64,000 bases of DNA from positions 42,776-106,775 of IMG/VR virus record IMGVR_UViG_3300049491_000418. One strand, given 5' to 3'. Position 1 is the first letter of the stretch. The number at the start of each line of letters is the position of its first letter. The DNA is from a virus. Shown here one piece after another: positions 6,301 to 26,019 of the stretch. A program made the position numbers and the translations under genes. The notes under the pieces are model-generated. The model saw nothing but the letters and a program-made list of their open reading frames with translations, had not been told where the DNA came from and searched no databases.

Positions 6301-9300
6301 TTGATTAAAGATGAGTTGGCTTTATATGATATAAAGAAAAACTCTTCTACACCTTTAGAGAATCCACCTGTTGAGGATACAACTGAAGAAGCTCCTGCTG
6401 AAGAAGAAACTATAGAGGAGATTGATGAAGTAAGAGAAGCTACAGATGAGTCTGTAAATGCTCCAACAGAAACTGAGATAGCTGATGGTAACAATACTAC
6501 TATTGAAGAAGCTGCTCCTAAGAAAAGAGGAGGCTTTGGTAAGGTAGATCCTAATAGAATTCCTTTAAGAGATAGAAAAGAGTATAGACTTCAAGTTCTT
6601 AAAGAAGCTAAAGCATTTGAAGGAGAGAATTGGGAGAAAGTTGAAAAGTGGTTAGCTGCTAACTTTCCTGGTCTTCCTGTATACAGAGTTAAAAATATGA
6701 TTAAAGCTTCCAATGGTAGACAAGCTTGGGGTGCTTTAATGGATGGTTCTATATATCTAACTCAAAATGCTGAGGTAGGTACTGTATATCATGAGGTATT
6801 TGAGGCTGTATGGAAGATGTTTGCTGGACCTAAAGAGAAAAATGCTATTATTAAAGAGTTTAGAAACAGACCTGGTTATTATAAAGATAGATTTACTGGA
6901 AAACTTATTAAGTTTTCAAGAGCTACAGATGCTGAGCTTAAAGAAGAACTTGCTGAGGAATTCAGAGATAAAGTATTGTATGGTAAAGATCCTGTTAGAA
7001 TTAAAGGAAGAAATCTTATCTCAAGATTGTTCAATGAATTACTAGACTTTATTCATAAGTTCTTTACAGGAAAAGAAGCTGTTAATAATACCAAACAATT
7101 GTTTGACAAAATTGGTAATGGTTATTATAAAAACATACATAATCCCTATTTAACAAAATTATCTTTTCCTCAAGAAGGAATTATAGATATAGAAGATATG
7201 GATGTTGGTGATAATGCTGAGCTTAGAATCAACAATATCCCTGCAATTCAAGTGCATGATATTATCCAACACATGACATATAGCTTATTGGCTCCTTTAT
7301 CAGAATCCAATGATATTTTATTCTCTCTTTCTGATATTTTAAGTAAGGGTAAAACTAAAATATATGCAGAGCTACAAGAAGAGGTACTAGGTGCTATTAA
7401 TGAGAAAGGTCTTGTTCTTGTTGATAAAGAAGCTAGTGGTCAAAAACTAACTGATTCAGAACAAAGAATGTTTGATAACCTTGAAACTCTTTATAACAAT
7501 GTAGAGACTGAATGGAAAAACATAGTAGAAGAACATGTTAATTACTTAAAAACATATGCTCTTGAGTTTGATGAGAATGATGAGTTGAATATTAATGAAG
7601 GAGAACAATCTGGTAAAGAGGACTGGCAAGATGCCAGAACTATTGATTCCTTTAGAAAGTCTAATAGTGCAATAAAACTATTACTAGGAACACTACCAGT
7701 TAAGACTATGAAGAATGGATATCCAGAGACTGTGTATTCTTCTATAGGAGGATATACTCTCTTACCTGCTAATGCCGTTCATATAGATTTAATGAATAGA
7801 TTGCATGATTCAGTAGATATTGATGAGATGATGGAAAGACTTCAAAACATAGCTTTGAATGATCCAAAATACTTTCAATTGTTTGAGCGTTTAACAGGTA
7901 AACAACCATCTGCTAATCAGGATGTATACTCTGATATTTCTGATTCAGATTTCAGATTAATTTCTAGTTTCTGGAGAGTACTTAAAAAACAAAATGCTGA
8001 TGTTATCACTGTGTTTATTCAACCTGGTGGTGAGGTAATTGTTAGTGATAGTACTCTTGCTTCTGCAACTAAAGAGGCTAAAAGAGATATGATGAGTAAA
8101 ATCATTGATACTATGAAGACTGAGAAAACTCCTTATTTCTCTTATAATAGTAAGACAGGTAGATATTCAGCTACAAAGGTTTTGAAAGATGTTACTTTTA
8201 GTTCTGAAATGTCTTCATATACAAATTTTCTTAAGAACTTAGGGATTAAGATAGATCCTGTAAAGTTGTCTGATACTCTTGATGAGAATCAGAAAAAAAT
8301 GTTTAGAAAAACTGTAGGATTTATTAAAGAAACTATTGAAGTTATTGGTGATAAAGTCAAAACAACTAATCCAGATACTGGAGAGGAGATGACTATAGAT
8401 ACAGGTATTATGTCTATTAATACTTCCACTCTTAATATAGATGCTGATATGACCAGATTGGGAATCATTCAAGCTATTCTTGAAAATCCTGTATTTGAAA
8501 GTACATATTTCAATATCAATGGTCAACGTACACAATCTTATGTTGGTACTAATACAGTTAGTAGCTTCTATGATGTACTATCTAAGGTTGTTGACTTTAG
8601 TGAAGATCTACAGGAACCTCAAAATAAAGGATTCAGATACTTATTAACAGACAAGTTTGCTAAAAACTCTCAAATTCTTAAAAAATTGTTTGTTCAAAAT
8701 GATGATGGTTCTTACGGAGAAAGAAAGGATGGTACTGAGGGTATTATGAAAACTGTTTTTATTGATGGAACTATTGATGAGTACTCTGGTAAAAAGAAAG
8801 AATCTTCAAAATTGAACTATGTACAACGGTTTGTACAAGAACTTAATTTGAACCTAGAAGGGATTTATTTAAATCTGGTTCCAGGAGATGCTTCTATTGA
8901 ACATGCTGTAAGACTGCACTCAGATGATAATCCATTTGTAAATAAAGATTCTTATGAAAACGGACGTCATCTTCCAATATTCAGAGATTACTTCATAGAT
9001 GAGGTAGAGTTAGCAAGAGATGAAAGACTTGTGGCTAATGTTTCAGGAAGAAATAGTACAGATTTACGTTTCTTTAAATCTATTTTGGAAGATAAATCAA
9101 AAGCAAATAAAAATGCTTTACATGATGAGATAATGTATGATGAGAAAAATAAGGATAAAACCTCTGAAGAGTTATACAAATCTTATGAGAGCCAAATTAA
9201 TACTGCTGTTAATAAGTTTATAGTAGAACAAGGTAAGGAAACACAAAGATTATTTAATAAGTTTAATATCATTCAGGCAAATCCAGAAAATGGTTTAGAA

Positions 9301-12300
9301 GCTCCTGGATTAAACTTTAAACAAGATGAGCTTAAACCAGAGTTTCTTGCACAGAAACTTGAGGTAATGGCTGTCAACTATATGATAGCTAACATTGAGT
9401 TCCACAAACTTATATATTCAGATCCTTATCAATACTCTGATGAGCTTAAACGTATCAAAAACTTTAACTCACCAAGACAAGCTCTTGTATTTAATTCTCA
9501 AACATTAGGTAAGTTTTTACAAGACTTCTATAATAAAGGAGTTAATCCAAAAGATAAAGCAGCCTACACTGATTTCCAAAGAGATCATTTTAGAACAGTT
9601 ACTATTGATGATATATTTAGTACTAATAAAAATAAAGACTATGAAGATCCTTTTGAGGAAACAGATGGTGGTGGTTATATTACTATCCAAGCATTACGTA
9701 AGTTTAGATTAAGACTTGGTGATTGGACTCCTGCTAATGAAAGACAATTCCAATTTGACTTAGACTATGAAAGAAAGGTTAAAGCTGGTGCTAGTGCAGA
9801 AGATCTTAGAAAATTTCTTAAAAGAAATCCTAATATCAAAAACACTTATACTCCTGTTAAACCTATTGTATCTGGTAATAAAGAAAATGGTAGAGACTTC
9901 AATGATGTTGTATTACACAAATTTGCATTAGTGCCTCTTTCTTATAGAGTACTTCATGAGTTACAAGAAAATAGTTATGCCATTAAACTTCTTGATAAGA
10001 TGGTTAATGATGACATTGACTATGCTGTATATGCTTCGGGTAGTAAAGTTGGTACTGAGACAGTACATGAGCTTTATAATGAAGATGGTACTTTTAATAA
10101 TACTCCTTTTGAATCTCAAAGAGAGAAAGAAGGATTCTTACCTAACAATGTAAAACGTGGTGTATCAAATATTCCTTTCTCTATTGTAGGTTTACAAACT
10201 GAAGTTCCTTCAAAAGACACTCCTTTAGTTACTCAAGGATCACAAATAACCAAGTTGGTTACTATGGACTTTATGGAAGCTGGTATGCCTGTTGACTTCA
10301 TGCCTGAGGCAGAATTTATGGATAGATTTGCTGTTTGGACTACCACTGATGAAGAGGGTAGAATGAAATCTGAGCTATATAGAATGGTTCAACATAATCA
10401 AAATCTTCTTGAAGCAAAAATTGTGGAAGGGTATAATTCTCTTCTTAAAAAACTAGGAATTGTTCAAGGTAAAGAGGGTGACAATCTTACTTTCACTATT
10501 ACAGATAGAGATAAGTTCATTAAAACTCTTAAGGATGAGATCCTTAAAAGAGAAGTTAACTATAATATAACTGATTCTTTTGATGGATTTGAGAGTGGAC
10601 ATGTTGTTCTTGAAGCTACTCCAGCATATCAACAGATTAGAAACATTCTTTATTCTATTGCAGATAAGAATGTTGTTAGACCTAAGATCTCTGGAGGTAT
10701 GAAAGTACAAATTCCTTCTTCATTGTTATTGGAACAACACAGAGTGAATATTGGTTCCTTTAAAAACAAAGCAGGGGAAATCAAACAAATCTTTGAGTCT
10801 AGTGAATTAGAGTTCTACACAAAATCAGAAGATGGTAAGTCAGTTAATGTAGCTGAGATAATGGTTGGTAGATGGTTCAAAAGTGATAAGACTGATGAAG
10901 AGTTGATTGAATATTTCAATAATGATCCAGAAGGTAAAAAACAACTTGAAGCATTAGCAGGTATAGCCTTTAGGATTCCTACTCAAAAACAAAACTCTAT
11001 TGATGTATTCAAGATTAAGAAGTTTCTTCCTAAGGACTTTGGAGATAGTGTTGTGGTTCCTTCTGCCTTGGTTAAGAAAGTAGGATCGGATTTTGATATT
11101 GATAAATTGTCAATCTATTTGAAAAACCTATATCCAGGAAAGGATAAAAATTTAAAAACTGTTCCTTATTTAGGAACTGGTGATCAAGCTCTTGACAAAT
11201 TTAGAAAGCTTTTTGATGAAGGAGAGTTTGATGAATATGTAAAAACATTTAAAGATTTTCTAGATCTTGATAGTGCTGAGGATAGATTACTTGAAAGTAT
11301 TTTTCCTGAAGACTATGCAGAACAAAGATCAATACAAAAAGAGGATGTAGTTAATAAATTATATAAAGAGTCTCTTGAGAATGAATATATAAGATCATTA
11401 GAAGGGCTTGTATCTCATCCTAGTAACTATGAGGCTTTGGTAAAACCAAACTCAGCTCAAGATCTTAAAGATATAACTAATGATATAAATGAGAGAAAAG
11501 GATTGGAGAAAACTGATTATACTAATGTAGGTAATATGCTTAACAGAGGATTTATGTCTAAACAAAGACATGAGTTTGTTACTGGTAAACAAGCTATTGG
11601 TATTGCTGCAGTTGCTCAAACTAATCACTCTCAAAATCAAAGAAGCCCATTATTTCTTGATTTCAGAAAACTTAAGAAAGAAGGCATGGATGAATTGGAT
11701 AGAACTCTTTTGGGTGGAAATCCTAAAGCTAAATCATATGCAAATAATCCTAGAATAAACTTTAAACATTATAATTCAATTTTGGTTGATGGTATTGCAT
11801 TTCCTACTTTATCTCTTATTAAAGCAGCAGGACAGGCTACAGAATATATCTCAGATACAATTGGGATGTTTATTGATGGTTATGTGGATGTTGCTAAAGG
11901 TGGATGGATTATGGAGATGGGTGCAACTCCTAATACTGCAGGTACCTGGTTGTACTTGATTAAGATAGGAGTTCCTATTAAAGATGTTGCATACTTCATG
12001 AATCAACCTATTATTGTTGACTATTTACAAAGAATAGAGAATAAAGGTCAAACTTGGTTATTCTCAGAAGGAAACATACTTAAAACTCTAGAGTTATATG
12101 AAAGTCCAGAGGATACCAGTAAACCAGAAGTAAGAGCTGTCATAGATAGTATAACATCAATTCCTAATCTATCAACATTAAAAAGTAATATTGGTAAGAC
12201 TATTGAAGATATGACTCCTCAAGAGTTATATGAGCAACACTTTATGTTGAAAGAGTTTGTTAAATATGCTAAACAAGCATCTCAATTATTTGAGGTAACT

Positions 12301-14356: not shown

Positions 14357-17300
14357 ATGAGCTGTAAAATTCAAATAAAAGAGAATATTACTCAAGTTAT
14401 TGAGAAGAAAACTAGTGGTGCTACTGAAAAACCATTAGAAGAAGCTCAGGCTATTGGGATAGAAGTAAACAGTCAATTTGGTGTTGATGTTGTTTCCTTC
14501 TCCCAAACTCCAGATTATCTTGTAAAGAGAACTATTTCTATTCCTGATAGTCTTGTAGATATCTATTATGATAATGAAGTAGCTTTAGAGGAATCAGAGA
14601 AGGCATCTATTGTTGAAACTCCCAGTATTGTACCCACTTCTAAGGCTACTAGTGAAACTCTTATTAAGGTAAAAGAGGTTATGCAACAAATGAAAGTAAG
14701 TTTTCAATTATTGCATGACTACGCAAAAGGTAACCCAGCAATAGAAACAAAAGATGTTAGTGGACTTGCTGATCTATCTGCAGGAGTAATAGCTGTAGCT
14801 CAAGGTTCAGAAAGTGCTACATTAACAGAGGAAATGGTCCATATAGCTACTGCTATTTTGGAACAAACAGATCCTAAGTTAATAACATCACTTATATCTA
14901 AGATTGAGAGATTTAAAATTTACAAACTTACTTATGATGCTTATAAAGGAAATAAGAATTACCAGTTATCAAATGGTAAACCAGACATACGTAAGATTAA
15001 AAAAGAAGCTGTTGATAAACTGATTGCTGAATATATTGTTAAACAATCTCAAGGTAACTCAGATTTTCCAGAACTTACTGAACAAAGAGAAAGAAACTTG
15101 GTTCAATCATGGTGGGATTCTATTCTTGAATATTTAAGAAGCTTGTATGGTAAATCTAAAGTGGATTTATTTGCACAAGCTGCAGATCATATCATGTCTG
15201 GTAATATAGGTACTATTGAAGATATTAAAGCTCAAGGAGTTTACTATCAATTAGGAACTGATGCAGTTGGAGATAATCCTCTTGTTGATAAGTTTGTTAA
15301 TATCATCAATGACATTGACAGTAGAATGAAACTTGATCCTAATCCTTCAGATAGACATTATACATTAGATGGTGAAAGGGTAGCAACTAGTGTTACTGAG
15401 AAGATTGGTAAATCTAAAAATCTACCTGATAGAACTCCTGAACAAAAGATTAGTGATGATCAAAAGAAAACATGGGGTTCTGAAGGACATATGTATATTG
15501 AAAAGTATATAAAAACCAATCTTATAGATCAAGATGGATTTAAAAAACCATTTACAAATAGTCTTATAAATACTACTCTTGATAGTGAAGCTCAAGAAAA
15601 ACTTAATAGGTTTGCTGAGAACTTGATTAATTCCTATCCTAAAGGAACAAGATTTCTTATTGAAAAGAAAGCAGTTAATCAAAGAGAAAAAGGTATGCTT
15701 GGATCTACAATAGATTTCATAGCTGTATATCCTGCAAAAAAAGTAGATGGTTCTCCAGATGTGAATATAGATATACTTGACTGGAAGTTCACTGATATAG
15801 ATAAATCTATAGAGGAAGATGTTCCATATGTTAAACAAAAAGACTGGAAGCCTCAGATGGGTGAGTATACCAAGATGATGTATGAATACGGTTTCAAACC
15901 TGGTCAGATTAAAAAAGCCAGAATGATTCCTTTCATTATGAATTATGACAATATTGTTAAAGGAGATAGAAAAAGTGGTTTAAGACCAACCTCTATTGAA
16001 ATTGGAAAGGTTGACAGTCTTACTGAAACTAATTTATATTTACTTCCTGTTCCAATCAATTCTGAGAGCACAGGAAATGATGCCATTGATGATTTGTTGA
16101 AATCTCTTAGAGGATACTGGGAGAAAATGTATTCAAAACAAGTTATTCCAGAAGCCAGAGCAACAAAACTGATTCATTTGAATCAATTAAGTAAAGCTAT
16201 CCGTATATTACATGTTACTTTGAACTTTGCTCCTCTTGTAAGTGTTGGTAAAACCTTCATCTCAACCTCTAGGGCTTCTCTAGATTCATTTAAAGGTGTG
16301 GATTATACTAAGTTATCAAAAGAACAAATTGAGGCCAAATTACAAGACTTAATTGAGTTTAAAAACACTGCATTGAACTTTGCATCATTAGATGAGGCAT
16401 ATATTTCTCATTATGGAGATGTTAATCTTACTGATGAGGCAAATAAAATATTATTAGGTCTTAAAGCTGTTTCTGCAAATGCCAAATCTAAATTAAAGGA
16501 AATTCTAGAACTTCAAAAAGAATATGTAGCACAAATTGCTGTTAGAGAAAATTTTGTTAATGAAAACAATAAAACTTCTTTATTTGATGCTGAGAAAGAG
16601 ATTGGTGCACTTATCAAAAATTTTGTAGAAGGAAGTAGACTTCCCGCCAAGCTTATAAATTTTGCTTCTAATCTTATCATGAGAGTGAAAAGATCTGCTG
16701 AGAAAAGATTCATAGAGAAGTTTGATGAATTTAAAAAAGTATTACTTCCTTTAGAAGAGGAAGCTTCTAGACAAGGTAAAAGAGCATTTGATATGATAGG
16801 AACTGTTGATAAAACAGGACTACATCTTATAAAAAAAGTTGATAAAAAGTTCTGGACCGATGTAAAGGATGCTAAAGAGAAAGGTAAGGAGAACAAAAAA
16901 TTTCTTATGGATAATATGGATATGGAAAAATTCAATTCCTTGGCTAAAGAAGCTATAAATAAAGGAGTTGAAGAGCTTAAACTTATAGAGTTCTCTATGG
17001 ACAAAGAAAAAGATGATTATATTAGAAGTGGTAAGATCAAACGTCTAAGAAAATCAGTAGATATTAATAGAGAAGACTTTAATGGTTATAATGAATACCT
17101 ATTCAACCATATTTTTAGACAAGTTGTTAAGGCAGATGATCATTTATCTGAGGAATACAAGCAAATGAGTAAAAGTAAAGCATCCTTAGATGCTTGGAAC
17201 TTCTTTACAGCAATGAATGAGAAAGCTAGAGACATAGGATACATTGATAAACAAGGTATGTCCTTCTTTCCATTGATTGAAGCTAGTATTGTTGATAAAT

Positions 17301-19252
17301 TTAGACAAACAAGTAATGCTGGAGTTGAGTTAAAGAACTTCTTTAAAGATTTATATACTGTTAGAGAGTCTGAAGAGCAAATTTTCTCTAAAAAAGATTC
17401 AGAAACAGGAGAAATTAAGAAATCTATACCAAAACACTTCACAAAACAAGGAAATCTTGCTACAGAAAGACTTTCTACTGATTTAAACAAGGTAGGGGCA
17501 CTCTGGATCAAAGCTTTAATGGATTATGAAGCCAAACAATCAATTGAGAATACCCTATTAACTATTCAGGCTGTTGAAAGAGCTAAAGGAAGTCTTGTTG
17601 TTAATGAACAAGGTGATTTAGTTAGTGAAGGGGGTAAGTTTGTTGTTAATAAATCTGTAAATAAGAATGCAGATATAATGGAAGCCATCTTAAATGATGC
17701 TATATATGATTTGCAGGAAGACTTAGGGAATATTGGTAACATTACTATCCAAAAAACAGCAAACAAACTTGGTAAAACAGCTGAAGGTAAAGAAAACCTA
17801 AATGTATCTATTAAAAAAGGACTTAAGAATGCTGATACTCTTACTAGAGCTCTTGCTGTTGGTCTAAAACCATTAATTGGTTTGGCTAACTGGATGGGTT
17901 ATAATTTACATGCTGTTATTACAGGAGGTAATATGTATACTGTTGCAGAATTTATGAAAAACAATGCAAGAGTAACTGTATTTGGAGGACTCTCATTAGA
18001 ACATAAAGCTCTATTACACTTAGTAACTACTGCTCCTGATGATGAGATGACAGAGATGAGAAGAAAAGCAGCCAGAGAAAAAAGTCTAATATCTTATCTT
18101 TCCACATGGTCATTCAGTGATGTTATGATGCTCACTAACTCTTTCCCTGAAAGAAAATTAGCTTTAGCTAGCGCTAAAAGCTTTAATGACAATGCTATAA
18201 TAATTGATGGTAAGATTGTAAATGCCAGACAATATCTTAGAAAACAAGATAGATCTCAAAAATATAAGTTATCTCCTTCTGAAAGAAAGGTTCTTGAAAG
18301 ATCCTTTGATGATAGAGTTAAATCTTTATTAGAATCTTCAACCAAGTTAACTTCAGCTGTTAAAGTAACAGATGAAAAGATTACAATTGAAGGAGTATTA
18401 GAAGATGAGATTGTAAAATATAGTTTGAAAGTATCTGAATTTTCCAGAAACATGAATGGCTCTATGAACATAGATAACAAAGCTGGTTATAGAAGAGATA
18501 CCATGTTCAGTTCATTTATGATGTTTAAGAACTGGATCCCTAAATTATTAATTTCTAGAACAGGAGAGATAAAATATAACCTTGAAACAGAAGATTGGGA
18601 GTATGGTAGAATGAGAGCATTTGCTAAGGTATTTGCTGATAGTGGCTTTAGTGTTATTAAGAATATGAGAGCAATTATAACAGGTTCTCCTGAAGGACTA
18701 GCTATCCTTGATAGACTTCTACAGGAAAAGAAAGATGCATACTTTGAAAAAACTGGTCAAGAGTTAGAAATAACTGAAGAGGAGTTTTATGATTTAATGA
18801 GAAGAGAACTTGTTAATGAAGCCAAAGAACTTGGTATGTTATTTACCACATTTGCTATGGCAGCTATGATAGGTTTTATAAAACCACCTGAAGATGCTAC
18901 AAATGATGAAAAAAATAAATGGAAGTTATGGGCTAAAGCATCTAATAAGATAGCGGAAGAACTTAGTTTTTATTATAGTCCTTTATCTATGGAAAGTATT
19001 ACTAAAGGAAGTATATTACCTTCTTTAGGTTTATTAACAAAAGCATGGAGATTTTTTACAGCATTTAGTAAAGAATCTTATGGATATACAACAGGAGATG
19101 AAGAACTAATGGATAAAACATATCCTATTAAGTATTTCTTTAATTTAATACCTGGATTGGCTCAATTTCAAAATGATTATCTTCCATACATTGATGCAGA
19201 ACTTGCTAAAGAGATGGGTATAAGAGTTACAGTAGAAGCCAGAAGACAATAA
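14357..19252 (+). CDS. Large virion/ejection protein with a PD-(D/E)xK nuclease-like domain
   Basis: 1631 aa directly after the RNAP; HYTLDG..SVT, WGSEGH, GSTIDF...ILDWKF...Q..Y motifs (~15355-15930); degenerate zincin-like TEEMVH at 14825. Confidence 0.75.
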   Translation: MSCKIQIKENITQVIEKKTSGATEKPLEEAQAIGIEVNSQFGVDVVSFSQTPDYLVKRTISIPDSLVDIYYDNEVALEESEKASIVETPSIVPTSKATSETLIKVKEVMQQMKVSFQLLHDYAKGNPAIETKDVSGLADLSAGVIAVAQGSESATLTEEMVHIATAILEQTDPKLITSLISKIERFKIYKLTYDAYKGNKNYQLSNGKPDIRKIKKEAVDKLIAEYIVKQSQGNSDFPELTEQRERNLVQSWWDSILEYLRSLYGKSKVDLFAQAADHIMSGNIGTIEDIKAQGVYYQLGTDAVGDNPLVDKFVNIINDIDSRMKLDPNPSDRHYTLDGERVATSVTEKIGKSKNLPDRTPEQKISDDQKKTWGSEGHMYIEKYIKTNLIDQDGFKKPFTNSLINTTLDSEAQEKLNRFAENLINSYPKGTRFLIEKKAVNQREKGMLGSTIDFIAVYPAKKVDGSPDVNIDILDWKFTDIDKSIEEDVPYVKQKDWKPQMGEYTKMMYEYGFKPGQIKKARMIPFIMNYDNIVKGDRKSGLRPTSIEIGKVDSLTETNLYLLPVPINSESTGNDAIDDLLKSLRGYWEKMYSKQVIPEARATKLIHLNQLSKAIRILHVTLNFAPLVSVGKTFISTSRASLDSFKGVDYTKLSKEQIEAKLQDLIEFKNTALNFASLDEAYISHYGDVNLTDEANKILLGLKAVSANAKSKLKEILELQKEYVAQIAVRENFVNENNKTSLFDAEKEIGALIKNFVEGSRLPAKLINFASNLIMRVKRSAEKRFIEKFDEFKKVLLPLEEEASRQGKRAFDMIGTVDKTGLHLIKKVDKKFWTDVKDAKEKGKENKKFLMDNMDMEKFNSLAKEAINKGVEELKLIEFSMDKEKDDYIRSGKIKRLRKSVDINREDFNGYNEYLFNHIFRQVVKADDHLSEEYKQMSKSKASLDAWNFFTAMNEKARDIGYIDKQGMSFFPLIEASIVDKFRQTSNAGVELKNFFKDLYTVRESEEQIFSKKDSETGEIKKSIPKHFTKQGNLATERLSTDLNKVGALWIKALMDYEAKQSIENTLLTIQAVERAKGSLVVNEQGDLVSEGGKFVVNKSVNKNADIMEAILNDAIYDLQEDLGNIGNITIQKTANKLGKTAEGKENLNVSIKKGLKNADTLTRALAVGLKPLIGLANWMGYNLHAVITGGNMYTVAEFMKNNARVTVFGGLSLEHKALLHLVTTAPDDEMTEMRRKAAREKSLISYLSTWSFSDVMMLTNSFPERKLALASAKSFNDNAIIIDGKIVNARQYLRKQDRSQKYKLSPSERKVLERSFDDRVKSLLESSTKLTSAVKVTDEKITIEGVLEDEIVKYSLKVSEFSRNMNGSMNIDNKAGYRRDTMFSSFMMFKNWIPKLLISRTGEIKYNLETEDWEYGRMRAFAKVFADSGFSVIKNMRAIITGSPEGLAILDRLLQEKKDAYFEKTGQELEITEEEFYDLMRRELVNEAKELGMLFTTFAMAAMIGFIKPPEDATNDEKNKWKLWAKASNKIAEELSFYYSPLSMESITKGSILPSLGLLTKAWRFFTAFSKESYGYTTGDEELMDKTYPIKYFFNLIPGLAQFQNDYLPYIDAELAKEMGIRVTVEARRQ

Positions 19253-19288: not shown

Positions 19289-19918
19289 ATGGGAACACCA
19301 AGCAAACAAATTGGATGGAGTCAGGAATCAAACCTACTTCATGCAATATTAAGACAACTTGATCAACTTGCTGGCGTAATAGCTGTCAGTGGAGGAGGTG
19401 GACTAGATAACTTTGTTACTCTAAATACAGTCCAACCTATTGTTGCAAGGAAAGATTTCTCTGTAGTTGCAGGACCTGCATCTACTTTTACATCTTCTAC
19501 TGGAAATACAGTGAATGTTACTGCCACTACTGGTAGTGGTGTATATAGTACATCTGTTGATGGCCCAGCTATAGAAGGATTTTCAGTTAATGATCCAGGT
19601 ATTTTTGGGTATTCCAGTAATAGTGCTGGTGTATTTGCTCACTCACAGAACTTTGTTGCTCTTATTGTAGACTCTTTAAATCCAGGGAACCTTAGTGATT
19701 TAGCTAATTTTAATCTTAATGGAGTACCTGCAGTTAGAATTACTAATAATGGTAAATTAAGTCTAAAAGCTTCTACAACATTAGCTGCAGTATTAAATTT
19801 ACCTGTAGGAGTTGCTCCTACTGCTCCTGCTGATGGAGACATTTGGTTAGAGAGCACTGCTTTAACAGGGTTAAAAATAAGATTAGGTGGAGTAACTAGA
19901 ACTTTAACTATAACATAA
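19289..19918 (+). CDS. Putative tail fibre/decoration protein with N-terminal QIGWSQE motif
   Basis: G/S/T/A-rich with ~10-aa periodic GV(Y/F)xxS repeats (beta-helix-like) and C-terminal APTAPADGDIWL, typical of fibre proteins. Confidence 0.55.
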   Translation: MGTPSKQIGWSQESNLLHAILRQLDQLAGVIAVSGGGGLDNFVTLNTVQPIVARKDFSVVAGPASTFTSSTGNTVNVTATTGSGVYSTSVDGPAIEGFSVNDPGIFGYSSNSAGVFAHSQNFVALIVDSLNPGNLSDLANFNLNGVPAVRITNNGKLSLKASTTLAAVLNLPVGVAPTAPADGDIWLESTALTGLKIRLGGVTRTLTIT

Positions 19919-20055
19919 TGTCATATATCCCACGCCAGATAGGATGGTCTCAGGAGGCAATCCTATTGCAGAAAATATTGAAGAAGTTGATAGGTATTAC
20001 TAAACTTGCAGCAGCTGCAAGCCCAGCAACTACAACTACTACAACTACACTATAA
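19918..20055 (+). CDS. 45-aa protein (absent from ORF track) with QIGWSQE motif and poly-Thr tail
   Basis: Hand translation MSYIPRQIGWSQEAILLQKILKKLIGITKLAAAASPATTTTTTTL*; ATG overlaps upstream TAA (TAATG); N-terminus paralogous to the upstream gene. Confidence 0.8.
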   Translation: MSYIPRQIGWSQEAILLQKILKKLIGITKLAAAASPATTTTTTTL

Positions 20056-20076
20056 TAAACCAATAAATAACTAAAT

Positions 20077-21144
20077 ATGAGAGAGCTAGCCTTCATTACG
20101 GCATGCCCAGATGATACTTACTTTACATGGCAAGTACATTTGTGGCTTGAAAGTTTAAGAGAGATTGGGAAATCAGATAAAGCAGTAGTGCTTGTTTTTA
20201 CTCCAGTCTTTAGGGATCAAAACCCTAAGTGGGAACAAATTGTGGACTTATATCCAGAAGCTGTTTTTAATTTTTACAAAGATGAAGATAACATCTCTTC
20301 TTTATTAGGAATTTATATTCCAGTGTTAAGACCTTATCTTATGTGGAGATTTCTTAAGGAAAATCCTGTATACACAAGTAAGGCATTGTTTTATTGTGAT
20401 AGTGATATTCTCTTTACAGAGAAGTTCAATGTTGATGATTTCTTAGAAGATGATATTAATTACCTATCAGATACTAATAGCTATATAAATGCTGATTACT
20501 TTGATAGTAAAGTAAAAGATGTTCTTCCTGAGAAATTAGAAGAATACAAAACAAGAGATATCCTTGGTGAAGTAACCAGTTTAATTGGTATCACAAGGGA
20601 AATCTGTGAAGCAAATAATAAGAACTCTGGAGGGGCTCAATATTTGCTAAAGAACATGGATAGTTCTTTCTGGTCTAAGGTTATGAATGACTGTATAATC
20701 ATTAGAACCTATTTACTAAAAATAAATAGAGAATTCTTTAAAGATGAGAATGCAGGATTTCAAAGTTGGTGTGCTGACATGTTTGCTGTTCTTTGGAACA
20801 TTTGGTTAAGAAAACAGGAAACAAAAGTTATACCTGAATTAAATTTTGCTTGGTCTACTGATCCTATAGAAAAACTTCAAGAGACTACCATCTTGCATAA
20901 TGCAGGAATTGTAGGAGAGTTTCAAACTACTGGAACAAGTCACAAAATGACTAAGTCTGGAATGCTTACAGTACATGAGGGTTATAATGCCTTTTACAAG
21001 GGTAAGTATCATCAAGGATCAGATCCTATGATGGATCCACACTTAGACAAAGTATTAAATGATACTAACTCTCAGAAACATTGCACTTGGTTTTATGCCA
21101 AGAAATTAAAAGAATTAAGTAACAAATTTCAATTACAGTACTGA
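20077..21144 (+). CDS. GT-A fold glycosyltransferase resembling plant peptidyl-serine galactosyltransferase / Hyp arabinosyltransferase (GT96/GT95-like)
   Basis: Ordered motifs YFTWQ, YIPVLRPY, YCDSDILF (DxD), GGAQY, SWCADMF, ILHNAG parallel the recalled GT96 motifs YFDWQ, YPAINKP, ILDADM, VGG, GWISEMY, LMHYG. Confidence 0.7.
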   Translation: MRELAFITACPDDTYFTWQVHLWLESLREIGKSDKAVVLVFTPVFRDQNPKWEQIVDLYPEAVFNFYKDEDNISSLLGIYIPVLRPYLMWRFLKENPVYTSKALFYCDSDILFTEKFNVDDFLEDDINYLSDTNSYINADYFDSKVKDVLPEKLEEYKTRDILGEVTSLIGITREICEANNKNSGGAQYLLKNMDSSFWSKVMNDCIIIRTYLLKINREFFKDENAGFQSWCADMFAVLWNIWLRKQETKVIPELNFAWSTDPIEKLQETTILHNAGIVGEFQTTGTSHKMTKSGMLTVHEGYNAFYKGKYHQGSDPMMDPHLDKVLNDTNSQKHCTWFYAKKLKELSNKFQLQY

Positions 21145-21857
21145 TGAAAGATTATAATGGACTCATAAATCTAAACTATCCTGTTAAACCTTATTGTCTC
21201 TATATGATACATAATGATGATGACAGGAATGATAAAAATATTTATATAGGAGTTACTACTGATCAAATTCAGAGATGTTATAGACATTCTAAAAATAGAA
21301 TGTATAAAAGGTATCAGAGCTCTTCTCTCTATATGTGGATGAATGATATTATAGATAATAAAAAACAAAAAGTTTCCTTCTTTGTGATGTTAGATAACTT
21401 AAGTGAGGAAGAGGCTTTTGAAAAAGAAAAAGAGTTTATTTCTGATTATCAAAGAATAGGATATACCATTTTAAATGATACTTTAGGAGGTAAAGGTCCT
21501 TCAGGTATTACTCCTTGGAATAAAGGCAAAAAGGATCATCTTTCAGAAGATCAAATCTTATCATTATCTTTATCTCATAAAGGTCAAGTTTCTCCTAGAA
21601 AAGGAGTTACTGTAACTGAAGAAACTAGACAAAGGATTATTCTTGGTAACAAGAGAAGAAAAGAAAGAAATTGGATTAATCCAAGAAAAAAGACAGTATA
21701 TAAGTACTCTAATGACAGAATTCTTTTGGCAACGTATTATTCTTTAGAAGAAGCAGGTCAAAAGGAAAATGTGTCTCCTACAAGTATAGGAGAGTGGTGC
21801 AGAAAAGATAAGAAACCTAGAAATGGGTTTGTATATTCTTATACTGAATTAACTTAG
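21144..21857 (+). CDS. GIY-YIG homing endonuclease with NUMOD3/NUMOD1 DNA-binding repeats
   Basis: CLYMI..IYIGVT..R...H, catalytic E, GY.ILN..GG; PWNKGKK and SPRKG repeats; C-terminal HTH-like domain. Confidence 0.85.
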   Translation: MKDYNGLINLNYPVKPYCLYMIHNDDDRNDKNIYIGVTTDQIQRCYRHSKNRMYKRYQSSSLYMWMNDIIDNKKQKVSFFVMLDNLSEEEAFEKEKEFISDYQRIGYTILNDTLGGKGPSGITPWNKGKKDHLSEDQILSLSLSHKGQVSPRKGVTVTEETRQRIILGNKRRKERNWINPRKKTVYKYSNDRILLATYYSLEEAGQKENVSPTSIGEWCRKDKKPRNGFVYSYTELT

Positions 21858-21883
21858 AATATTAACTATAAAACTTAAACAAA

Positions 21884-22483
21884 ATGGCAACAAGTAAAAA
21901 AGACCTCAAGGCATTTGTAAGAATTGATGGACAAGGTCGTGTGGTAGCAGGGAGCTTAATCTTGAGAAAAGATAAGCCCAAAGTAGGTAAGTGGAGAGAA
22001 ATTCCAGCATATGAGTGCTGTAATCCAATAACCACAACCACAACCACAACACCTTCTCCTCCTCCTCCTCTTACAACAACAACCACCACAGAATTACTTA
22101 ATGATCCTGGTGAAACAACTACTAGTACTACTACTGAGGAACCAACCACAACTAGTACTACTACTACTGAAGAGTTGACAACAACATCAACTACTACAGA
22201 GGAGCTAACTACTACAAGTACTACAACTGTATTTGTTGATCCAAATGCTTTTACAACAACTACTACAACTTCATTGATTCCTGATCCAAATGACATCACT
22301 ACAACTACCAGTACTACTACTGAGAATGATGATGATGATGATGACGACGATGATGATGACCAAGGTGATGATGATAACAATGGTCATGGTCATGGTCATG
22401 TCCACATTGATGTAGATGTTGATAATGATGGTGATGGTGATGTTGATATTGACATTAATGTTGATAATGATGATGATAATTAA
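21884..22483 (+). CDS. Mucin-like low-complexity protein (globular N-terminus, Thr/Pro-rich stalk, Asp/His-rich tail)
   Basis: Basic N-terminal domain ending YECCNP, then poly-T, PSPPPP, three TTTSTTT(T)EE units, poly-D, GHGHGH, DVDVDNDGDGD. Confidence 0.75.
   Translation: MATSKKDLKAFVRIDGQGRVVAGSLILRKDKPKVGKWREIPAYECCNPITTTTTTTPSPPPPLTTTTTTELLNDPGETTTSTTTEEPTTTSTTTTEELTTTSTTTEELTTTSTTTVFVDPNAFTTTTTTSLIPDPNDITTTTSTTTENDDDDDDDDDDDQGDDDNNGHGHGHVHIDVDVDNDGDGDVDIDINVDNDDDN
22031..22480 (+). repeat. Coding trinucleotide repeats (ACN)n and (GAT)n
   Basis: Runs of aca/act/acc then gat/gac codons, with synonymous variation. Confidence 0.85.
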
Positions 22484-22496
22484 TAACTTCTAAACT

Positions 22497-22895
22497 ATGG
22501 CAATTTTTCCAAAAGAAATGATGGCTAATGCAGATATGTCCTTGGAAGGTGTAGCGTCAAAGCTTACATACTTCCAAGTGCAACTGCACTTGCAACATTG
22601 GCAAACTGTGAGTTATGCTGAGCATAAAGCCATAGATTCACTATATGATTTTGTGGTAGGATTTACTGATGATGTTGTAGAGAGACTTATGGGTTATAAT
22701 AACAGAAGAGTTAAAACATTTACCTTACAACCTCTTTCTGCAGAGCCTAGTACTACAACTGTTAATGATATACTTACTTTTGCCTATAATCTTCAAGAGT
22801 GGGCAGGTGAAAATCATTATTGTGATATTGAAAATCTAGCTCAATCTCTATCAGGAGAGGCAGCTAAAACTAAGTATTTACTAACATTGAAATAA
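22497..22895 (+). CDS. Ferritin/Dps-like four-helix protein (DUF5856-like)
   Basis: HLQHWQT.SYAEHKA.D.LYD...D.VVE..MG and C-terminal KTKYLLTLK. Confidence 0.75.
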   Translation: MAIFPKEMMANADMSLEGVASKLTYFQVQLHLQHWQTVSYAEHKAIDSLYDFVVGFTDDVVERLMGYNNRRVKTFTLQPLSAEPSTTTVNDILTFAYNLQEWAGENHYCDIENLAQSLSGEAAKTKYLLTLK

Positions 22896-23179
22896 TGGAT
22901 GTTAATAAGAAATTCTTTCCTTCTATAATGCCTGAAAATGAAGCAGTTTATTTTGCATCATTATATGGTGTTATTGAATCTGTAGATGAATTATCTTCAT
23001 TAGAAATAACCAAAACTCCTAAGGCTTATCTGTTTAGATTAATACCTTCTTTACCAAAATACACTAACTTGATTATTGAGGAGCTTATTAAGTTCCATAA
23101 TTTAATAGGAATTAGATTGGACATGGGAAAAAGTATAAAATCAACAGCAGTTATAACCTATTCTATTAGTTTCAATTAA
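22895..23179 (+). CDS. Hypothetical protein
   Basis: 94 aa, TAATG-coupled to the upstream gene. Confidence 0.7.
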   Translation: MDVNKKFFPSIMPENEAVYFASLYGVIESVDELSSLEITKTPKAYLFRLIPSLPKYTNLIIEELIKFHNLIGIRLDMGKSIKSTAVITYSISFN

Positions 23180-23189
23180 AAAATTTTTA

Positions 23190-23197
23190 TAACTTTG
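23190..23197 (+). promoter_or_regulatory. Bacteroidota-type -7 element TAACTTTG
   Basis: TAnnTTTG in the intergenic gap upstream of ATG 23226. Confidence 0.45.
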
Positions 23198-23225
23198 TTA
23201 CTTAAACCATTAAAAAAACTAAATT

Positions 23226-23519
23226 ATGGCAACTTATGATCCAAACAAAGCCTATACATGGGAACCTAATACTAAATTTGTCTTATCTGGACAAGATTTT
23301 AGTTTATTGTTACACTCAGTAAGAGGGATTTTATCAACTAAAGAGGCAACAAATGTCATTTTAGCTTATGAAATGAACAAAAAAATTGAAGAGATCATGG
23401 CTAGTGCTGTGGCAGAAGGTAAAGTAGTTGAATCTGAAGCTCCAGGACAAGTAGTTAATGATACTGAAGTTCATGATGCGGAAGTGTTGCCAGCTAATAA
23501 AAAGCTTAAAAAAGCCTAA
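23226..23519 (+). CDS. Hypothetical protein
   Basis: 97 aa ORF with A-rich leader. Confidence 0.7.
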   Translation: MATYDPNKAYTWEPNTKFVLSGQDFSLLLHSVRGILSTKEATNVILAYEMNKKIEEIMASAVAEGKVVESEAPGQVVNDTEVHDAEVLPANKKLKKA

Positions 23520-23520
23520 T

Positions 23521-23661
23521 ATGAAAAGTTCCAAACCTAAAAAAGCTCCCAAAGTGGCTCCTCCTTCAAGAGAGAAGCCTAACTATATGAGAGAGTCTGA
23601 TACTGATTCTAAGAGAACTAATCCTCAAGCACCAATGACTAAAAAACGTTTGTCAAAATAA
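23521..23661 (+). CDS. Small basic protein (46 aa)
   Basis: MKSSKPKKAPKVAPP...KKRLSK; ATG 1 nt after the upstream stop is more plausible than the track start at 23458. Confidence 0.6.
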   Translation: MKSSKPKKAPKVAPPSREKPNYMRESDTDSKRTNPQAPMTKKRLSK

Positions 23662-23688
23662 TTCTTCTGTTCTCGTGTTTGTTCAAAG

Positions 23689-23717
23689 AAAAAGCCTCTT
23701 TAATTAGAGGCTTTTTT
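23689..23717. terminator. Bidirectional intrinsic terminator at the convergence of the two gene blocks
   Basis: AAAAAGCCTCT-TTAATT-AGAGGCTTTTTT, with an A-tract and a T-tract on the two sides. Confidence 0.85.
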
Positions 23718-24350
23718 GATTATTGATAGTGCTTCTTCATTACCACTCAGAGGTATCCAAGAGAATGATTCTACATCTTCATGAGCTTTTAGGAACTCTT
23801 CTATTTCTTCTCTGGCATAAACATTATGAAATAGATTCTGATGTGGATCATAGTTGATTATTTCTCCATGGCCTGGTATAAGGAAGAACACATGAATGGC
23901 TTCTTTAGAGGCTAGTCTTATCATTTCCTTCAGAACTGGTTTAAAGGTAGGTTGATGTTCAAGGACGTGTCTTGAAAACACAACTTCTGCTTCATTATCT
24001 TCTAAAGGAACACTATGTGCTTCAGCTAATATCATTGGAACACCAATCCCTGTATTTCTCTTATAGAGGAACTGACTACTATCTACTCCTAGATATTTTA
24101 ATTCTGGATATTCTATTTTGTAGGCATTGTGTTCTGAAGCAGCACCACAGCCTAAATCAATCAAATACTTGTATCCTTTATTCATAATATAAAGTCTAAA
24201 GAATACTTTACTTAAGGCACTACTAGAGCCTACCCAGGAAGAGAATTCTTCAAATCTCAAAGCTAGATTTTCATCCCACCAAGTTTGTACAAATTCTTGT
24301 TCAGGTTTACTCTCCATCCATTCTTTCTCGAAATTTTCATTATCACTCAT
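23700..24350 (-). CDS. Class I SAM-dependent methyltransferase
   Basis: LIDLGCG motif I, YLGVDSS, VVFSRHVLEH. Confidence 0.85.
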   Translation of the reverse strand: MSDNENFEKEWMESKPEQEFVQTWWDENLALRFEEFSSWVGSSSALSKVFFRLYIMNKGYKYLIDLGCGAASEHNAYKIEYPELKYLGVDSSQFLYKRNTGIGVPMILAEAHSVPLEDNEAEVVFSRHVLEHQPTFKPVLKEMIRLASKEAIHVFFLIPGHGEIINYDPHQNLFHNVYAREEIEEFLKAHEDVESFSWIPLSGNEEALSIIKKASN

Positions 24351-25107
24351 ATACTATTTTTTTATGTACTAGATTAAATAATTTGTCTTTGTTCTCTAAT
24401 AATTCCTTCTTAATGCTGGAAATATCCACATCAGATATCCTTACAATCTCTTCAAAACCACCTTTATCAGAAATAAGAAATTCAAACTTCTCTGTAGGTA
24501 CTGTATATGTTGGGGGATTATAATGAAAATAAGCATTAATATAGCTTTCATCATTAACTCCAGGCTCATATGAAATTTTCTTATCTTCTTTTTGATAAAA
24601 AACTAGTGTTTTACAGAACTCGAAAATATTACTCTTACTTCCTCCAAAAAAAGCACCATAATAATACATTTGTGGTAATGGTGTATTTTCTGGAACATAA
24701 GCTTTAGATAAAGGATTTCTATCAAAAGACTTTCTTTCTTTCATCCAAGATTGATCCCCATAGTGTTGACCTCCTACTAATTCTCCTAAAAACCAATCTT
24801 CTGTAAATTCTTTATCTATATTAGTATCTGAATCAAAGTAAAATTTGAAATCTTCGTCATTATAACTCTCCTCAAGACTAATAATATTGGTAAATTTTGA
24901 ATTAGTAGCATCTACCCAATTACTATGAGTAGTATAATGATAAATTACATTTATACTATCAGGAAGATAAGGTCTAGGATCTGTATCTGTAAACAGATGA
25001 AATACTATTTCAGCTTTTCCTTTATAAAAGTGCATAAATCTCTTTATAAATCGTAGTGCAAGAGCAAAATATGCATTAGTTCCTACTATTATTATACCTA
25101 TCTTCAT
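24343..25107 (-). CDS. Family 6 (ABO/alpha-1,3-Gal(NAc)T-like) glycosyltransferase
   Basis: MKIGIIIVGTNAY, HLFTD, YFDSD (DxD), FDRNPLSKAYV, YYYGAFFGG, NDESYIN; start revised to ATG 25107. Confidence 0.85.
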   Translation of the reverse strand: MKIGIIIVGTNAYFALALRFIKRFMHFYKGKAEIVFHLFTDTDPRPYLPDSINVIYHYTTHSNWVDATNSKFTNIISLEESYNDEDFKFYFDSDTNIDKEFTEDWFLGELVGGQHYGDQSWMKERKSFDRNPLSKAYVPENTPLPQMYYYGAFFGGSKSNIFEFCKTLVFYQKEDKKISYEPGVNDESYINAYFHYNPPTYTVPTEKFEFLISDKGGFEEIVRISDVDISSIKKELLENKDKLFNLVHKKIVYE

Positions 25108-25684
25108 ATTGTAAATTTGTTTTGTTAATTCTTGATCCATTAAGCATATGTTTTAACATACTGTGACTTACAGTAAGGGTTTCTGCTGCTGCTCTAGCTG
25201 AAGGATAAACTTCTTTAGTAATTATATTGATAACTTTTTTGGCAGAAGCAGGAACTAATCCTTTTCTTAAATTTCTATTTCTTTCAGCAGCTTCAGGACT
25301 CCTAACTTTACCTGAATTAGCTTTACCTATTTTAAGTTTATGTTCTAAAGATTTACTTTTTCTCATTTTTTCTATAGTTTCTGGACTATTTTTACCTCTT
25401 GAACCCCCTTCTCTAATATTAAGTAGATCAAATCCTTGTTCTTTAAAGAATTTCATATAATGAATTTCAAAATAATCCATACTTTCTTGAGTTGATTCTA
25501 TAGTTAATTCATGTATTATCTCAAAAGTATGCTTCTCAATACCATACTTAATAAAAGAATTATGAAGTTTTCCTTGAGTTCTAGCTAAATCTCTGCTATA
25601 ATTATAGAATCTTGTTTCTATTTCCCAACTCTGTCCAATATAAACTTTACCAGAGGGACTAGTTATTTTATAAATACCTATCAT
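25076..25684 (-). CDS. GIY-YIG homing endonuclease with NUMOD repeats
   Basis: MIGIYKITSPSGKVYIGQS..R, LNIREGG, NSPETIEKMRKS; start revised to ATG 25684. Confidence 0.9.
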   Translation of the reverse strand: MIGIYKITSPSGKVYIGQSWEIETRFYNYSRDLARTQGKLHNSFIKYGIEKHTFEIIHELTIESTQESMDYFEIHYMKFFKEQGFDLLNIREGGSRGKNSPETIEKMRKSKSLEHKLKIGKANSGKVRSPEAAERNRNLRKGLVPASAKKVINIITKEVYPSARAAAETLTVSHSMLKHMLNGSRINKTNLQYEDRYNNSRN

Positions 25685-25697
25685 AATATTAAATATT

Positions 25698-25717
25698 AAA
25701 GCCCTCCTAAGAGGGCT
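25698..25717 (-). terminator. Hairpin/terminator
   Basis: AGCCCTC-loop-GAGGGCT followed by TT on the - strand. Confidence 0.55.
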
Positions 25718-25728
25718 GTTAATTTCCA

Positions 25729-26019
25729 TCACCAGATATGCGCTATGTCAAAAATACTCACCATTATTACTTCCTTCTCTTCTGATAGAATGATTTTGGC
25801 TGCTTTAGCTGCTGATGTAGGATCTATCATAACTTCATCTCCCTCAGCGAGGTCTGTTATATCACTTCCTACAGCATAAACTCTTAATCTACCAAAACTT
25901 CTCATTTTTTCAGCATCAAGCATGGCTTGAGTTTCAGCATCTACATATGCTAAGCTACTTACTTTCTCTACAGGGAGTTCTAGATATATCCTTCTCCCTA
26001 ATAATTTTCTAAATTCCAT
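25729..26019 (-). CDS. groES: GroES-like co-chaperonin
   Basis: KLLGRRIYLE...VYAVGSDITDLAEGDEV...IFDIAHIW. Confidence 0.75.
   Translation of the reverse strand: MEFRKLLGRRIYLELPVEKVSSLAYVDAETQAMLDAEKMRSFGRLRVYAVGSDITDLAEGDEVMIDPTSAAKAAKIILSEEKEVIMVSIFDIAHIW

Follow-up and report, generated by a model that had tools for sequence, protein, structure and literature searches.

A candidate phage-encoded O-glycosylation system for threonine-rich virion proteins in a distant relative of the crAss-like phages

Organization of the locus

The DNA analysed here (64,000 nucleotides, hereafter called the window) comprised bases 42776-106775 of the 106,775-bp IMG/VR virus record IMGVR_UViG_3300049491_000418, which was estimated to be 92% complete. 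Coordinates are those of the window unless they are said to refer to the genome. The late genes, including two giant open reading frames (ORFs) of 4671 and 1631 amino acids (aa), were encoded on the plus strand, and this plus-strand run stopped at approximately 23.5 kb. Beyond that point, the minus strand carried the genes for RecA, a family A DNA polymerase, DnaB, PhoH and dUTPase. A candidate system for the glycosylation of phage proteins was placed at the junction of the two strands. It comprised the gene of a 355-aa glycosyltransferase (GT; 20077-21144, plus strand), genes of threonine-rich proteins on both sides of it and, on the minus strand, the genes of a GT6 enzyme and a methyltransferase. 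All the ORFs listed in a preliminary description of the window were recovered at the same positions. A bidirectional terminator-like hairpin (23688-23717), with a 12-bp stem and runs of T and A on either side, separated the late (plus) from the replication-side (minus) module, and the sign of the GC skew changed at this hairpin.

Poly-threonine runs, defined as runs of at least five Ser or Thr residues with at least four Thr, were sought in all six frames. In the window, they were found in two ORFs only, both of which flanked the GT gene. Their Thr codons were mixed (ACT, ACA and ACC) and selection therefore acts on the protein. The upstream ORF (19918-20055, plus strand) encoded a 45-aa microprotein, assigned to a family that we call U, with a docking helix, a short linker and one block of seven threonines (a T7 block), ending in ATTTTTTTL. 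Its start codon overlapped the stop codon of the preceding gene (TAATG), which encoded a 209-aa fibre-like protein (19289-19918, plus strand). The two products had the same kind of N-terminal docking motif (QIGWSQE..LL..IL..L), and the C-terminal 140 aa of the 209-aa protein matched the end of a 644-aa protein of the structural module (genome 14796-16727) with 36% identity (E 6e-18). The downstream poly-Thr ORF (21884-22483, plus strand) encoded a 199-aa protein of a second family, D, in which a 47-aa N-terminal domain ending in YECCN was followed by eight Thr blocks and a tail containing Asp11, HGHGHVH and a part rich in Asp and Val. Both poly-Thr products are proposed glycan acceptors.

The enzyme encoded between the poly-threonine genes

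The 355-aa protein, a putative initiating protein O-glycosyltransferase, matched phrog_4417, a PHROGs family annotated as of unknown function, with an E-value of 3e-53 and 181.8 bits (residues 6-282 on profile positions 3-253 of 293). No family was assigned to it by Pfam (E up to 1) or NCBIfam, and searches of the PDB sequences, run with the single sequence or with a profile, returned nothing meaningful. The family was large, with 1543 close relatives in clusters at 90% identity (E up to 1e-5) and at least 735 representatives or clusters at 50% identity (E up to 0.001). In an alignment of 89 diverse members, D108 and D110 (the DSD motif, of DxD type), Y80, Y136, Q229 and F257 were invariant, and the glycine pair 185-186 and H274 were nearly invariant.

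The AlphaFold2 model of the protein had a predicted local distance difference test score (pLDDT) of 97.5. At E up to 0.001, Foldseek returned 162 matches in the PDB, and those at the top were all glycosyltransferases, with glycogenin as the best (E 6e-6). The VIA-align comparison likewise placed glycogenin (GT8) first, with a Z-score of 14.5, followed by AgtA, the Skp1 alpha-galactosyltransferase (GT77, 14.1), LgtC (GT8, 14.0), WbbM of O-antigen synthesis (13.6), the catalytic domain of UGGT (GT24, 13.6), GlyE of serine-rich-repeat-protein glycosylation (13.3), BoGT6a (GT6, 12.5) and PBCV-1 A64R of capsid glycosylation (11.5). Both methods thus put retaining GT-A enzymes first, several of which act on proteins. 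The high-confidence model and the fold search together identify the product of 20077-21144 as a DxD GT-A glycosyltransferase, in agreement with the preliminary description. The GT95 label proposed there was not retained, since the Pfam HPAT family was silent on the protein and its genome and the best fold matches belonged to GT8, GT77 and GT24. In figures, GT95 (HPAT, PF23452, cut-off 23.9 bits) had no match in the 355-aa protein, in its genome (E up to 10) or in five other records carrying the enzyme. A weak HPAT signal was seen in three of the 89 relatives (best E 0.012), and HPAT members made up 10% of one related Atlas cluster; a remote relation between the two families may exist. Membership of CAZy GT8, as judged by Pfam Glyco_transf_8, was also not found, and the likeness to GT8 was confined to the fold.

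The top of the fold list was mixed as regards acceptors. The protein-acting enzymes glycogenin, AgtA, UGGT and GlyE stood there in line with the predicted role, but so did LgtC, which acts on lipo-oligosaccharide, and WbbM. These two matches would suit an enzyme that modifies a non-protein target, either a surface structure of the host (lipopolysaccharide, capsule or teichoic acid), so as to exclude superinfection, or the phage DNA, with the poly-Thr stretches serving as unmodified hydrophilic spacers. Many phage glycosyltransferases do serve serotype conversion or DNA glucosylation. As regards DNA, the T4 glucosyltransferases have a GT-B fold, and the Pfam scan of the minus strand found no route to hydroxymethylated bases, the only related products being the dUTPase and a dCTP-deaminase-like protein. 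Together with the position of the enzyme gene inside the structural operons of unrelated phages and its gain and loss with Thr tails on the structural proteins themselves (see below), this makes a non-protein target very improbable.

Poly-threonine proteins accompany the enzyme in its own phage group

The locus was compared with 80 related loci of the same group (56-74% identity). Within 8 kb on either side of the GT gene, 202 of the 215 plus-strand poly-Thr ORFs lay no more than 2 kb from it, a density per kb that was 36-fold higher than in the rest of these regions. In 68 of the 80 loci, plus-strand poly-Thr frames ended within 1.5 kb upstream of the GT. The upstream microproteins (family U) measured 42-65 aa and consisted of a helix with the consensus MAIPSRQIGWS..NLLWQISKQLE.LI, a short linker and a C-terminal part with one or two blocks of seven Thr or Ser residues, separated by xAP and followed by 0-3 end residues; 36 aligned members had the helix in common and contained invariant Thr positions. 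The downstream proteins (family D) measured 55-91 aa in the relatives and combined the 47-aa domain ending in YECCN with one to four units of T7-xAP. The N-terminal domain of family D was retained after the GT in 74 relatives, and the Thr-rich and acidic extension of the window's own member was unusually long by comparison. Homologues of the 209-aa fibre-like protein were present upstream of the GT in 35 of the 80.

The Thr blocks of the window and the related loci appeared quantized, as they almost always contained exactly seven Thr or Ser residues and occurred in one to four copies, with the three residues xAP as the spacer. This suggests a fixed footprint of the enzyme or a ruler. The family-U helix was also found at the head of other payloads (L016:7585-7968, L016:7221-7571 and L055:7640-7966), in which the Thr block linked it to, or followed, a Cys-rich domain of about 80 aa. 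Because the helix heads both these proteins and the 209-aa fibre-like protein, its distribution suggests a docking module that is joined to several kinds of payload.

The size of the U and D proteins (about 44-91 aa), their leader-like N-terminus, their C-terminus resembling a modified core and the adjoining modifying enzyme would also be compatible with glycosylated free peptides, such as glycocin-like products, decoys or late regulators, that never enter the virion even if larger Thr-tagged proteins are virion substrates. A lack of detectable likeness to the head fibres of ΦcrAss001 points in the same direction. Nevertheless, the U and D genes close the late structural operon, and the family-U motif heads a 209-aa protein whose fibre-type C-terminal domain is common to proteins of the tail module, as well as further payloads, as a docking module would. 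The ΦcrAss001 head fibres, moreover, dock by their first 38-58 residues only (PMC10172136). We therefore regard free peptides as an improbable explanation for U and D, and favour their being virion components.

The enzyme and threonine tails are gained and lost together in other phages

A tblastn search detected the enzyme family in 77 phage isolates, most of which infect Gram-positive hosts. Its range included phages of Enterococcus, Lactococcus, Lactobacillus, Staphylococcus, Clostridium and Chryseobacterium, as well as large environmental crAss-like phages. In these unrelated phages, the enzyme gene was situated inside structural operons and lay next to genes of the capsid, the tail tube or fibres. 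The phiFL1A homologue, gp51, followed the major tail protein gp50, which ended in a run of 21 Thr/Ser residues, and the capsid-region protein gp45 of this phage had three terminal Thr blocks. Thr tails were likewise present on gp4, gp11 and gp18 of phiCTP1, on orf3, orf10 and orf13 of Lactococcus phage 1706 and on orf50 of bIL285, and in Chryseobacterium phage MA9V-3 two ORFs upstream of the enzyme gene had long internal Thr/Ser tracts. A further 80 diverse loci, which were fetched with a fused relative of the enzyme, contained a poly-Thr ORF within 2.5 kb in 60 cases; it usually ended just upstream of the GT, and the tracts were internal to proteins of 450-1650 aa.

Presence and absence of the enzyme were compared among loci of close homologues of two tail-tube proteins, those of phiFL1A and bIL285, together with their flanks. 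These controls were drawn from phages of Gram-positive hosts because the group of the window yielded no relatives lacking the GT; anchoring on the neighbouring gene 22895-23179 gave three loci only. Among the 27 loci of the phiFL1A family, the 12 with a GT directly downstream, which were of Enterococcus type, all had Thr tails on the tube and capsid proteins, in contrast to none of the 15 without it. The identities to the query were interleaved between the two states (83% with the GT, 82-87% without it and 64-68% in both states), and at least two independent gain or loss events thus took place in this family. In the bIL285 tail-protein family, Thr tails were found in 13 of 13 loci with the GT versus 0 of 59 without it, and in some lactococcal loci with the enzyme the capsid protein also had a poly-Thr tail. 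For the pooled families, tail-tube Thr tails occurred in 25/25 loci with the GT and 0/74 loci without it (Fisher p 5e-24, uncorrected for phylogeny). The co-occurrence of the enzyme with poly-Thr ORFs, which had been expected from the preliminary description, was thereby observed both in the own group and elsewhere, and it strongly suggests that the enzyme family is functionally tied to poly-Thr tracts on virion proteins. Mainly because gain or loss of the enzyme goes along with that of Thr tails on structural proteins, the alternative readings considered in this report are less likely.

Threonine-tagged structural proteins in the rest of the genome

Outside the window, the long Thr runs of the 106.8-kb genome were confined to the plus-strand structural module, apart from one 32-aa minus-strand frame inside the gene of a 1876-aa protein. 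The replication module of approximately 40 kb contained no long Thr runs. In proteins of 258 and 205 aa, the runs formed interdomain linkers, and the 1876-aa protein had them at several sites and as a C-terminal T8. A 392-aa protein (genome 12614-13789) carried a double Thr block as a C-terminal tail. This protein had 3465 relatives, and in 120 of the 120 best homologues (70-92% identical) the tail C-x-T7-xxPx-T7-LIP, or a near variant of it, was present.

The model of the 392-aa protein had a pLDDT of 70, with the Thr tail modelled as disordered. It matched a 333-residue capsid chain of ΦcrAss001 (7qof, 7qof_a; E 3.9e-8) and, in BFVD, structural proteins of crAss-like phages (E 1e-15 to 1e-11). 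The 333-residue component is the auxiliary protein gp36, of which each asymmetric unit contains nine copies (PMC10172136). As described there, gp36 covers the capsid wall as its outer layer and, together with the capsid protein, creates hexon pockets into which the head fibres bind with their first 38-58 residues. The gene order was also similar, with the 392-aa gene being the third after the capsid gene in the present genome and gp36 the fourth in ΦcrAss001. Judged by this homology, a protein of an abundant outer capsid type bears the conserved double Thr tag, and the expectation that poly-Thr carriers would look like virion parts was borne out in at least this case.

The GT6 and methyltransferase cassette

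Two genes on the minus strand lay immediately behind the hairpin. The first (23700-24350) encoded a class I S-adenosylmethionine-dependent methyltransferase (Methyltransf_11, E 4.8e-10, 40.4 bits against a cut-off of 21.2), as previously described, with a weak match to the mycofactocin oligosaccharide methyltransferase MftM (E 7e-4). It is a proposed glycan O-methyltransferase, and from its context its substrate would be a sugar hydroxyl. It overlapped by 8 nt the second gene (24343-25140), which encoded a GT6 glycosyltransferase of DxD type (PF03414, E 1.4e-15, 57.4 bits against a cut-off of 25; NCBIfam Gltr_6), a proposed extending or capping enzyme. The GT6 protein was similar to BoGT6a (E 4e-13) and to human ABO transferases (E 7e-11); its DSD aligned with the NAN of BoGT6a, and the catalytic Glu of the NDES motif (H/N-D-E-S) was retained. 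The start at 25107, as originally assigned, is the likelier one because the alignment with BoGT6a begins at Met12.

Neither gene belongs visibly to the locus in the group of the window. They were missing from all 80 close relatives, so that synteny within the group gives no link to the enzyme. They might accordingly form an unrelated "moron" cassette that acts on host surface glycans or another target, while the enzyme itself glycosylates the poly-Thr proteins. Their location on the opposite strand, behind the terminator and at the end of the replication-side module would fit such an origin, as would the homing endonuclease at their flank, which suggests recent mobility, and the PHROGs placement of the cassette's family, phrog_3317, under morons and auxiliary metabolic genes. 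Against this stood the homologues of the cassette in other phages. GT6 domains 54-62% identical to the GT6 of the window were found in 12 loci, where they were either fused to a phrog_4417-type enzyme or coupled to it in translation; in a further locus, L118, the identity was 48%. In L143 and L144, the gene that immediately follows GT6 had 55% identity to the methyltransferase of the window, and L144 had the poly-Thr protein, GT, GT6 and methyltransferase genes in contiguous order on one strand. In 43 multidomain relatives of the enzyme, the only fusion partners recognized by Pfam were GT2, GT7C, GT6, a GT60-like GlcNAc transferase, O-FucT, methyltransferases and the sugar-binding F5/8C domain; methyltransferases and second GT domains thus recurred as partners of the family, with the methyltransferase fusions being found in P0143, P0176 and P0197. 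In addition, the slot of the cassette was filled differently in the relatives: a GT2-like gene occupied it in 23 of the 80, sometimes with a methyltransferase, and in L011 a GT2 and a methyltransferase gene lay beside the conserved gene 25729-26019. On balance, an unrelated cassette appears unlikely, and we infer that GT6 and the methyltransferase belong to the same pathway as the enzyme, as an exchangeable second-step cassette. The linkage drawn in the preliminary description is thus upheld by homologues fused or adjacent to the enzyme elsewhere, but not by conservation beside it in the own group.

The locus L118 belonged to a 596,785-bp contig (IMGVR_UViG_3300020045_008999), in which a GT-GT6 fusion gene directly followed the gene of a 2186-aa poly-Thr protein. 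At nearly 600 kb, this contig extends the occurrence of the module to a viral record of jumbo size.

Proposed pathway

In the reading that we consider the most likely, and hold with fair confidence, the phrog_4417 enzyme puts the first sugar on the Thr blocks of phage particle proteins, and GT6 and the methyltransferase tailor the glycan. What the analysis shows directly are the GT-A fold with its invariant DxD, the arrangement of the genes, the co-variation, the gene fusions and the relation of the 392-aa protein to a capsid protein; the acceptor, the order of the steps, the display at the particle surface and the identity of the sugars are inferred. The enzyme would act in the cytoplasm in a metal-dependent manner and would move sugar from a host nucleoside diphosphate (NDP)-sugar to Thr hydroxyls before or during assembly. 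Its targets would be blocks of typically seven residues separated by short Pro-containing spacers. The acceptors would include the 45-aa and 199-aa proteins of families U and D, each composed of a docking domain plus Thr blocks, the gp36 homologue with its two terminal T7 blocks, and the Thr linkers and tails of several large structural proteins. In the next step, GT6 would lengthen or cap the glycan by adding an alpha-linked hexose or N-acetylhexosamine, and the methyltransferase would cap it by O-methylation after the GT6 step. The GT2 that relatives hold in this slot, with or without a methyltransferase, implies a glycan that would vary from one related phage to another.

Several results weigh against this reading. 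The co-occurrence described above is a functional link, not chemistry. Sugar-phosphate transferases and nucleotidyltransferases with a GT-A fold also resembled the 355-aa model, with Z-scores of 9-10. The sister loci in the presence/absence comparison were related by descent, with at least two independent events in the phiFL family and one in the bIL285 family. The presence of U and D in virions is proposed from their domain plan and gene position, and hhalign gave a probability of less than 1% for either family against the ΦcrAss001 head fibres gp21 and gp29. A Pfam scan of the minus strand found no NDP-sugar synthesis genes among the phage genes. Finally, the GT6 and methyltransferase genes had no counterpart in the 80 loci of the own group, and their position on the other strand behind a terminator means that they are maybe expressed at a different time. 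The proposal of the preliminary description that this phage builds, extends and O-methylates glycans on Thr-rich virion parts is thus partly supported, by comparative genomics with regard to the enzyme, the carriers and the cassette homologues.

A more specific arrangement can be envisaged, for which the structure of ΦcrAss001 serves as the analogy. The outer capsid protein tagged with T7-T7, at about one copy per major capsid protein, and U/D "glyco-fibres" of 45-90 aa seated in the capsomer pockets at the sites of the ΦcrAss001 head fibres might together form a mucin-like glycan brush on the capsid, and swaps of the tailoring cassette, helped by homing endonucleases, might generate phage glycan serotypes. 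We regard this arrangement as possible but doubtful.

If the proposed pathway is real, glycoprotein particles would be common among phages, and relatives of phages from therapy and dairy settings would be among them. Such a coat would matter for how the immune system recognizes the particles, how they adhere to mucus or to polysaccharide of the host, how stable they are and which hosts they infect. As a tool, the enzyme together with a T7 tag would offer compact O-glycosylation in the cytoplasm. The enzyme family, which is unrelated to the mycobacteriophage enzymes, would have a simple, readable acceptor code of threonine blocks. The points set out from this locus are the tailoring link of GT6 and the methyltransferase, the tagged outer capsid protein and the two families of docking-domain microproteins.

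Comparison with known glycosylation systems

In mycobacteriophage virions, phage-encoded GTs modify capsid and tail-tube proteins (Che8 gp108-110, Corndog gp38 and Myrna), and the glycans are thought to shield the particle and blunt antibody recognition (Freeman et al. 2023, as summarised in PMC12363180 and PMC11652166). Within the literature covered, measured glycosylation of phage virions was found for mycobacteriophages only. Searches of the literature on poly-Thr or Thr-rich phage tails, O-glycosylated capsids and the structural proteins of phage 1706 returned nothing on the phrog_4417 family. Che8 gp108 combined a GT2 domain with an O-methyltransferase domain of Methyltransf_24/TylF type, and gp110 was a GT25 enzyme; the GT2 and methyltransferase domain types of gp108 were the same as those fused to phrog_4417 in P0143, P0176 and P0197, and this fusion recalls the tailoring cassette of the present phage. 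Homology to the Che8 enzymes was considered and rejected, as hhalign of the 355-aa family against gp110 gave a probability of 0.05%, and there were no mycobacteriophages among the 77 tblastn matches of the enzyme. The two systems also differed in layout. The Che8 capsid and tail-tube proteins lacked a poly-Thr tail and the Che8 GT genes lay far from the structural genes, whereas the present enzyme is wedged among its presumed substrates and dedicated microprotein carriers. Glycosylation has been measured in mycobacteriophages, whereas it is predicted from genes here.

With glycogenin, AgtA, UGGT and GlyE, the 355-aa protein had the same fold in common (Z 13.3-14.5, root-mean-square deviation 3.7-4.2 Å over 218-242 residues). 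Like the GT8, GT77 and GT24 enzymes, it had the DxD after the fourth strand and a near-invariant late His (H274). Unlike them, it would use homopolymeric Thr as the acceptor, and the sequence identity was 7-13%, with no membership of their sequence families. Animal mucin-type O-glycosylation (GT27) offers a parallel in its Thr blocks with Pro spacers, its initiation by a GT-A enzyme and its extension, including an ABO-type GT6 cap, but no homology to GT27 was found, and the animal pathway operates in the Golgi, whereas the present one would be cytoplasmic. GT95 (HPAT) and GT96 (SGT1) enzymes also have peptide acceptors, which are hydroxyproline or serine in their case and would be threonine here.

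The 392-aa protein resembled ΦcrAss001 gp36 in its fold, including the FliD-like domain, and in the position of its gene. It was 59 aa longer than the 333-aa gp36 and ended in T7-T7; gp36 itself was not scanned for such a tail. The small fibres of ΦcrAss001 dock by a short N-terminal segment (PMC10172136), whereas the "fibre" part of U and D would consist of Thr blocks alone, and the notion of U and D as minimal head fibres is an analogy only. The family-D domain gave a local match of 19 columns (37% identity, probability 0.2%, not significant) to residues 18-39 of gp21, which lie inside its capsid-binding segment.

Phage group, homing endonucleases and neighbouring genes

By megablast, no isolated phage matched the locus. 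The large terminase subunit (TerL) was 28-30% identical to those of crAss-like phages and 40% identical to that of Leptolyngbya phage Lbo-JY46, the nearest isolate, which was also the sole tblastn match of the major capsid protein. The relation of TerL, the fold match of the gp36-type protein (E 3.9e-8) and the BFVD matches, which were to crAss-like phages, all pointed to Crassvirales. By its sequence, the phage is Crassvirales-like, yet distantly so, because the major capsid protein matched Lbo-JY46 alone. The "crAss-like" label of the preliminary description is apt in that TerL and the gp36-type capsid protein are related, but it holds in a distant sense only, as the TerL identities indicate.

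A free-standing GIY-YIG/NUMOD3 homing endonuclease gene (21144-21857, plus strand; phrog_314, Pfam GIY-YIG 25.2 bits and NUMOD3 26.8 bits) was inserted between the GT and family-D genes, in accordance with the preliminary description. Its homologue was present in 7 of the 80 relatives; of the first 40, five had it immediately behind the GT. In most other relatives the family-D gene directly followed the GT. A second GIY-YIG endonuclease, recognized by its motif, was encoded at 25076-25732 (minus strand), between the GT6/methyltransferase cassette and the gene 25729-26019; the Pfam scan of this strand gave one GIY-YIG hit. Its homologues were found in four of the 80 relatives, in three shown cases elsewhere in the locus. 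GIY-YIG genes at the borders of the glycosylation genes may drive cassette exchange. HNH and NUMOD4 genes were also noted on the minus strand.

The giant ORFs (337-14352, 4671 aa, and 14357-19252, 1631 aa) closed the structural module. PHROGs assigned two families of unknown function to the 4671-aa protein and none to the 1631-aa protein; from their position, the two may be cargo proteins of the crAss type or virion RNA polymerase proteins. Directly after the family-D gene, a DUF5856 gene (22497-22895; Dps/ferritin-like, phrog_858) was observed, and it was retained in 64 of the 80 relatives.

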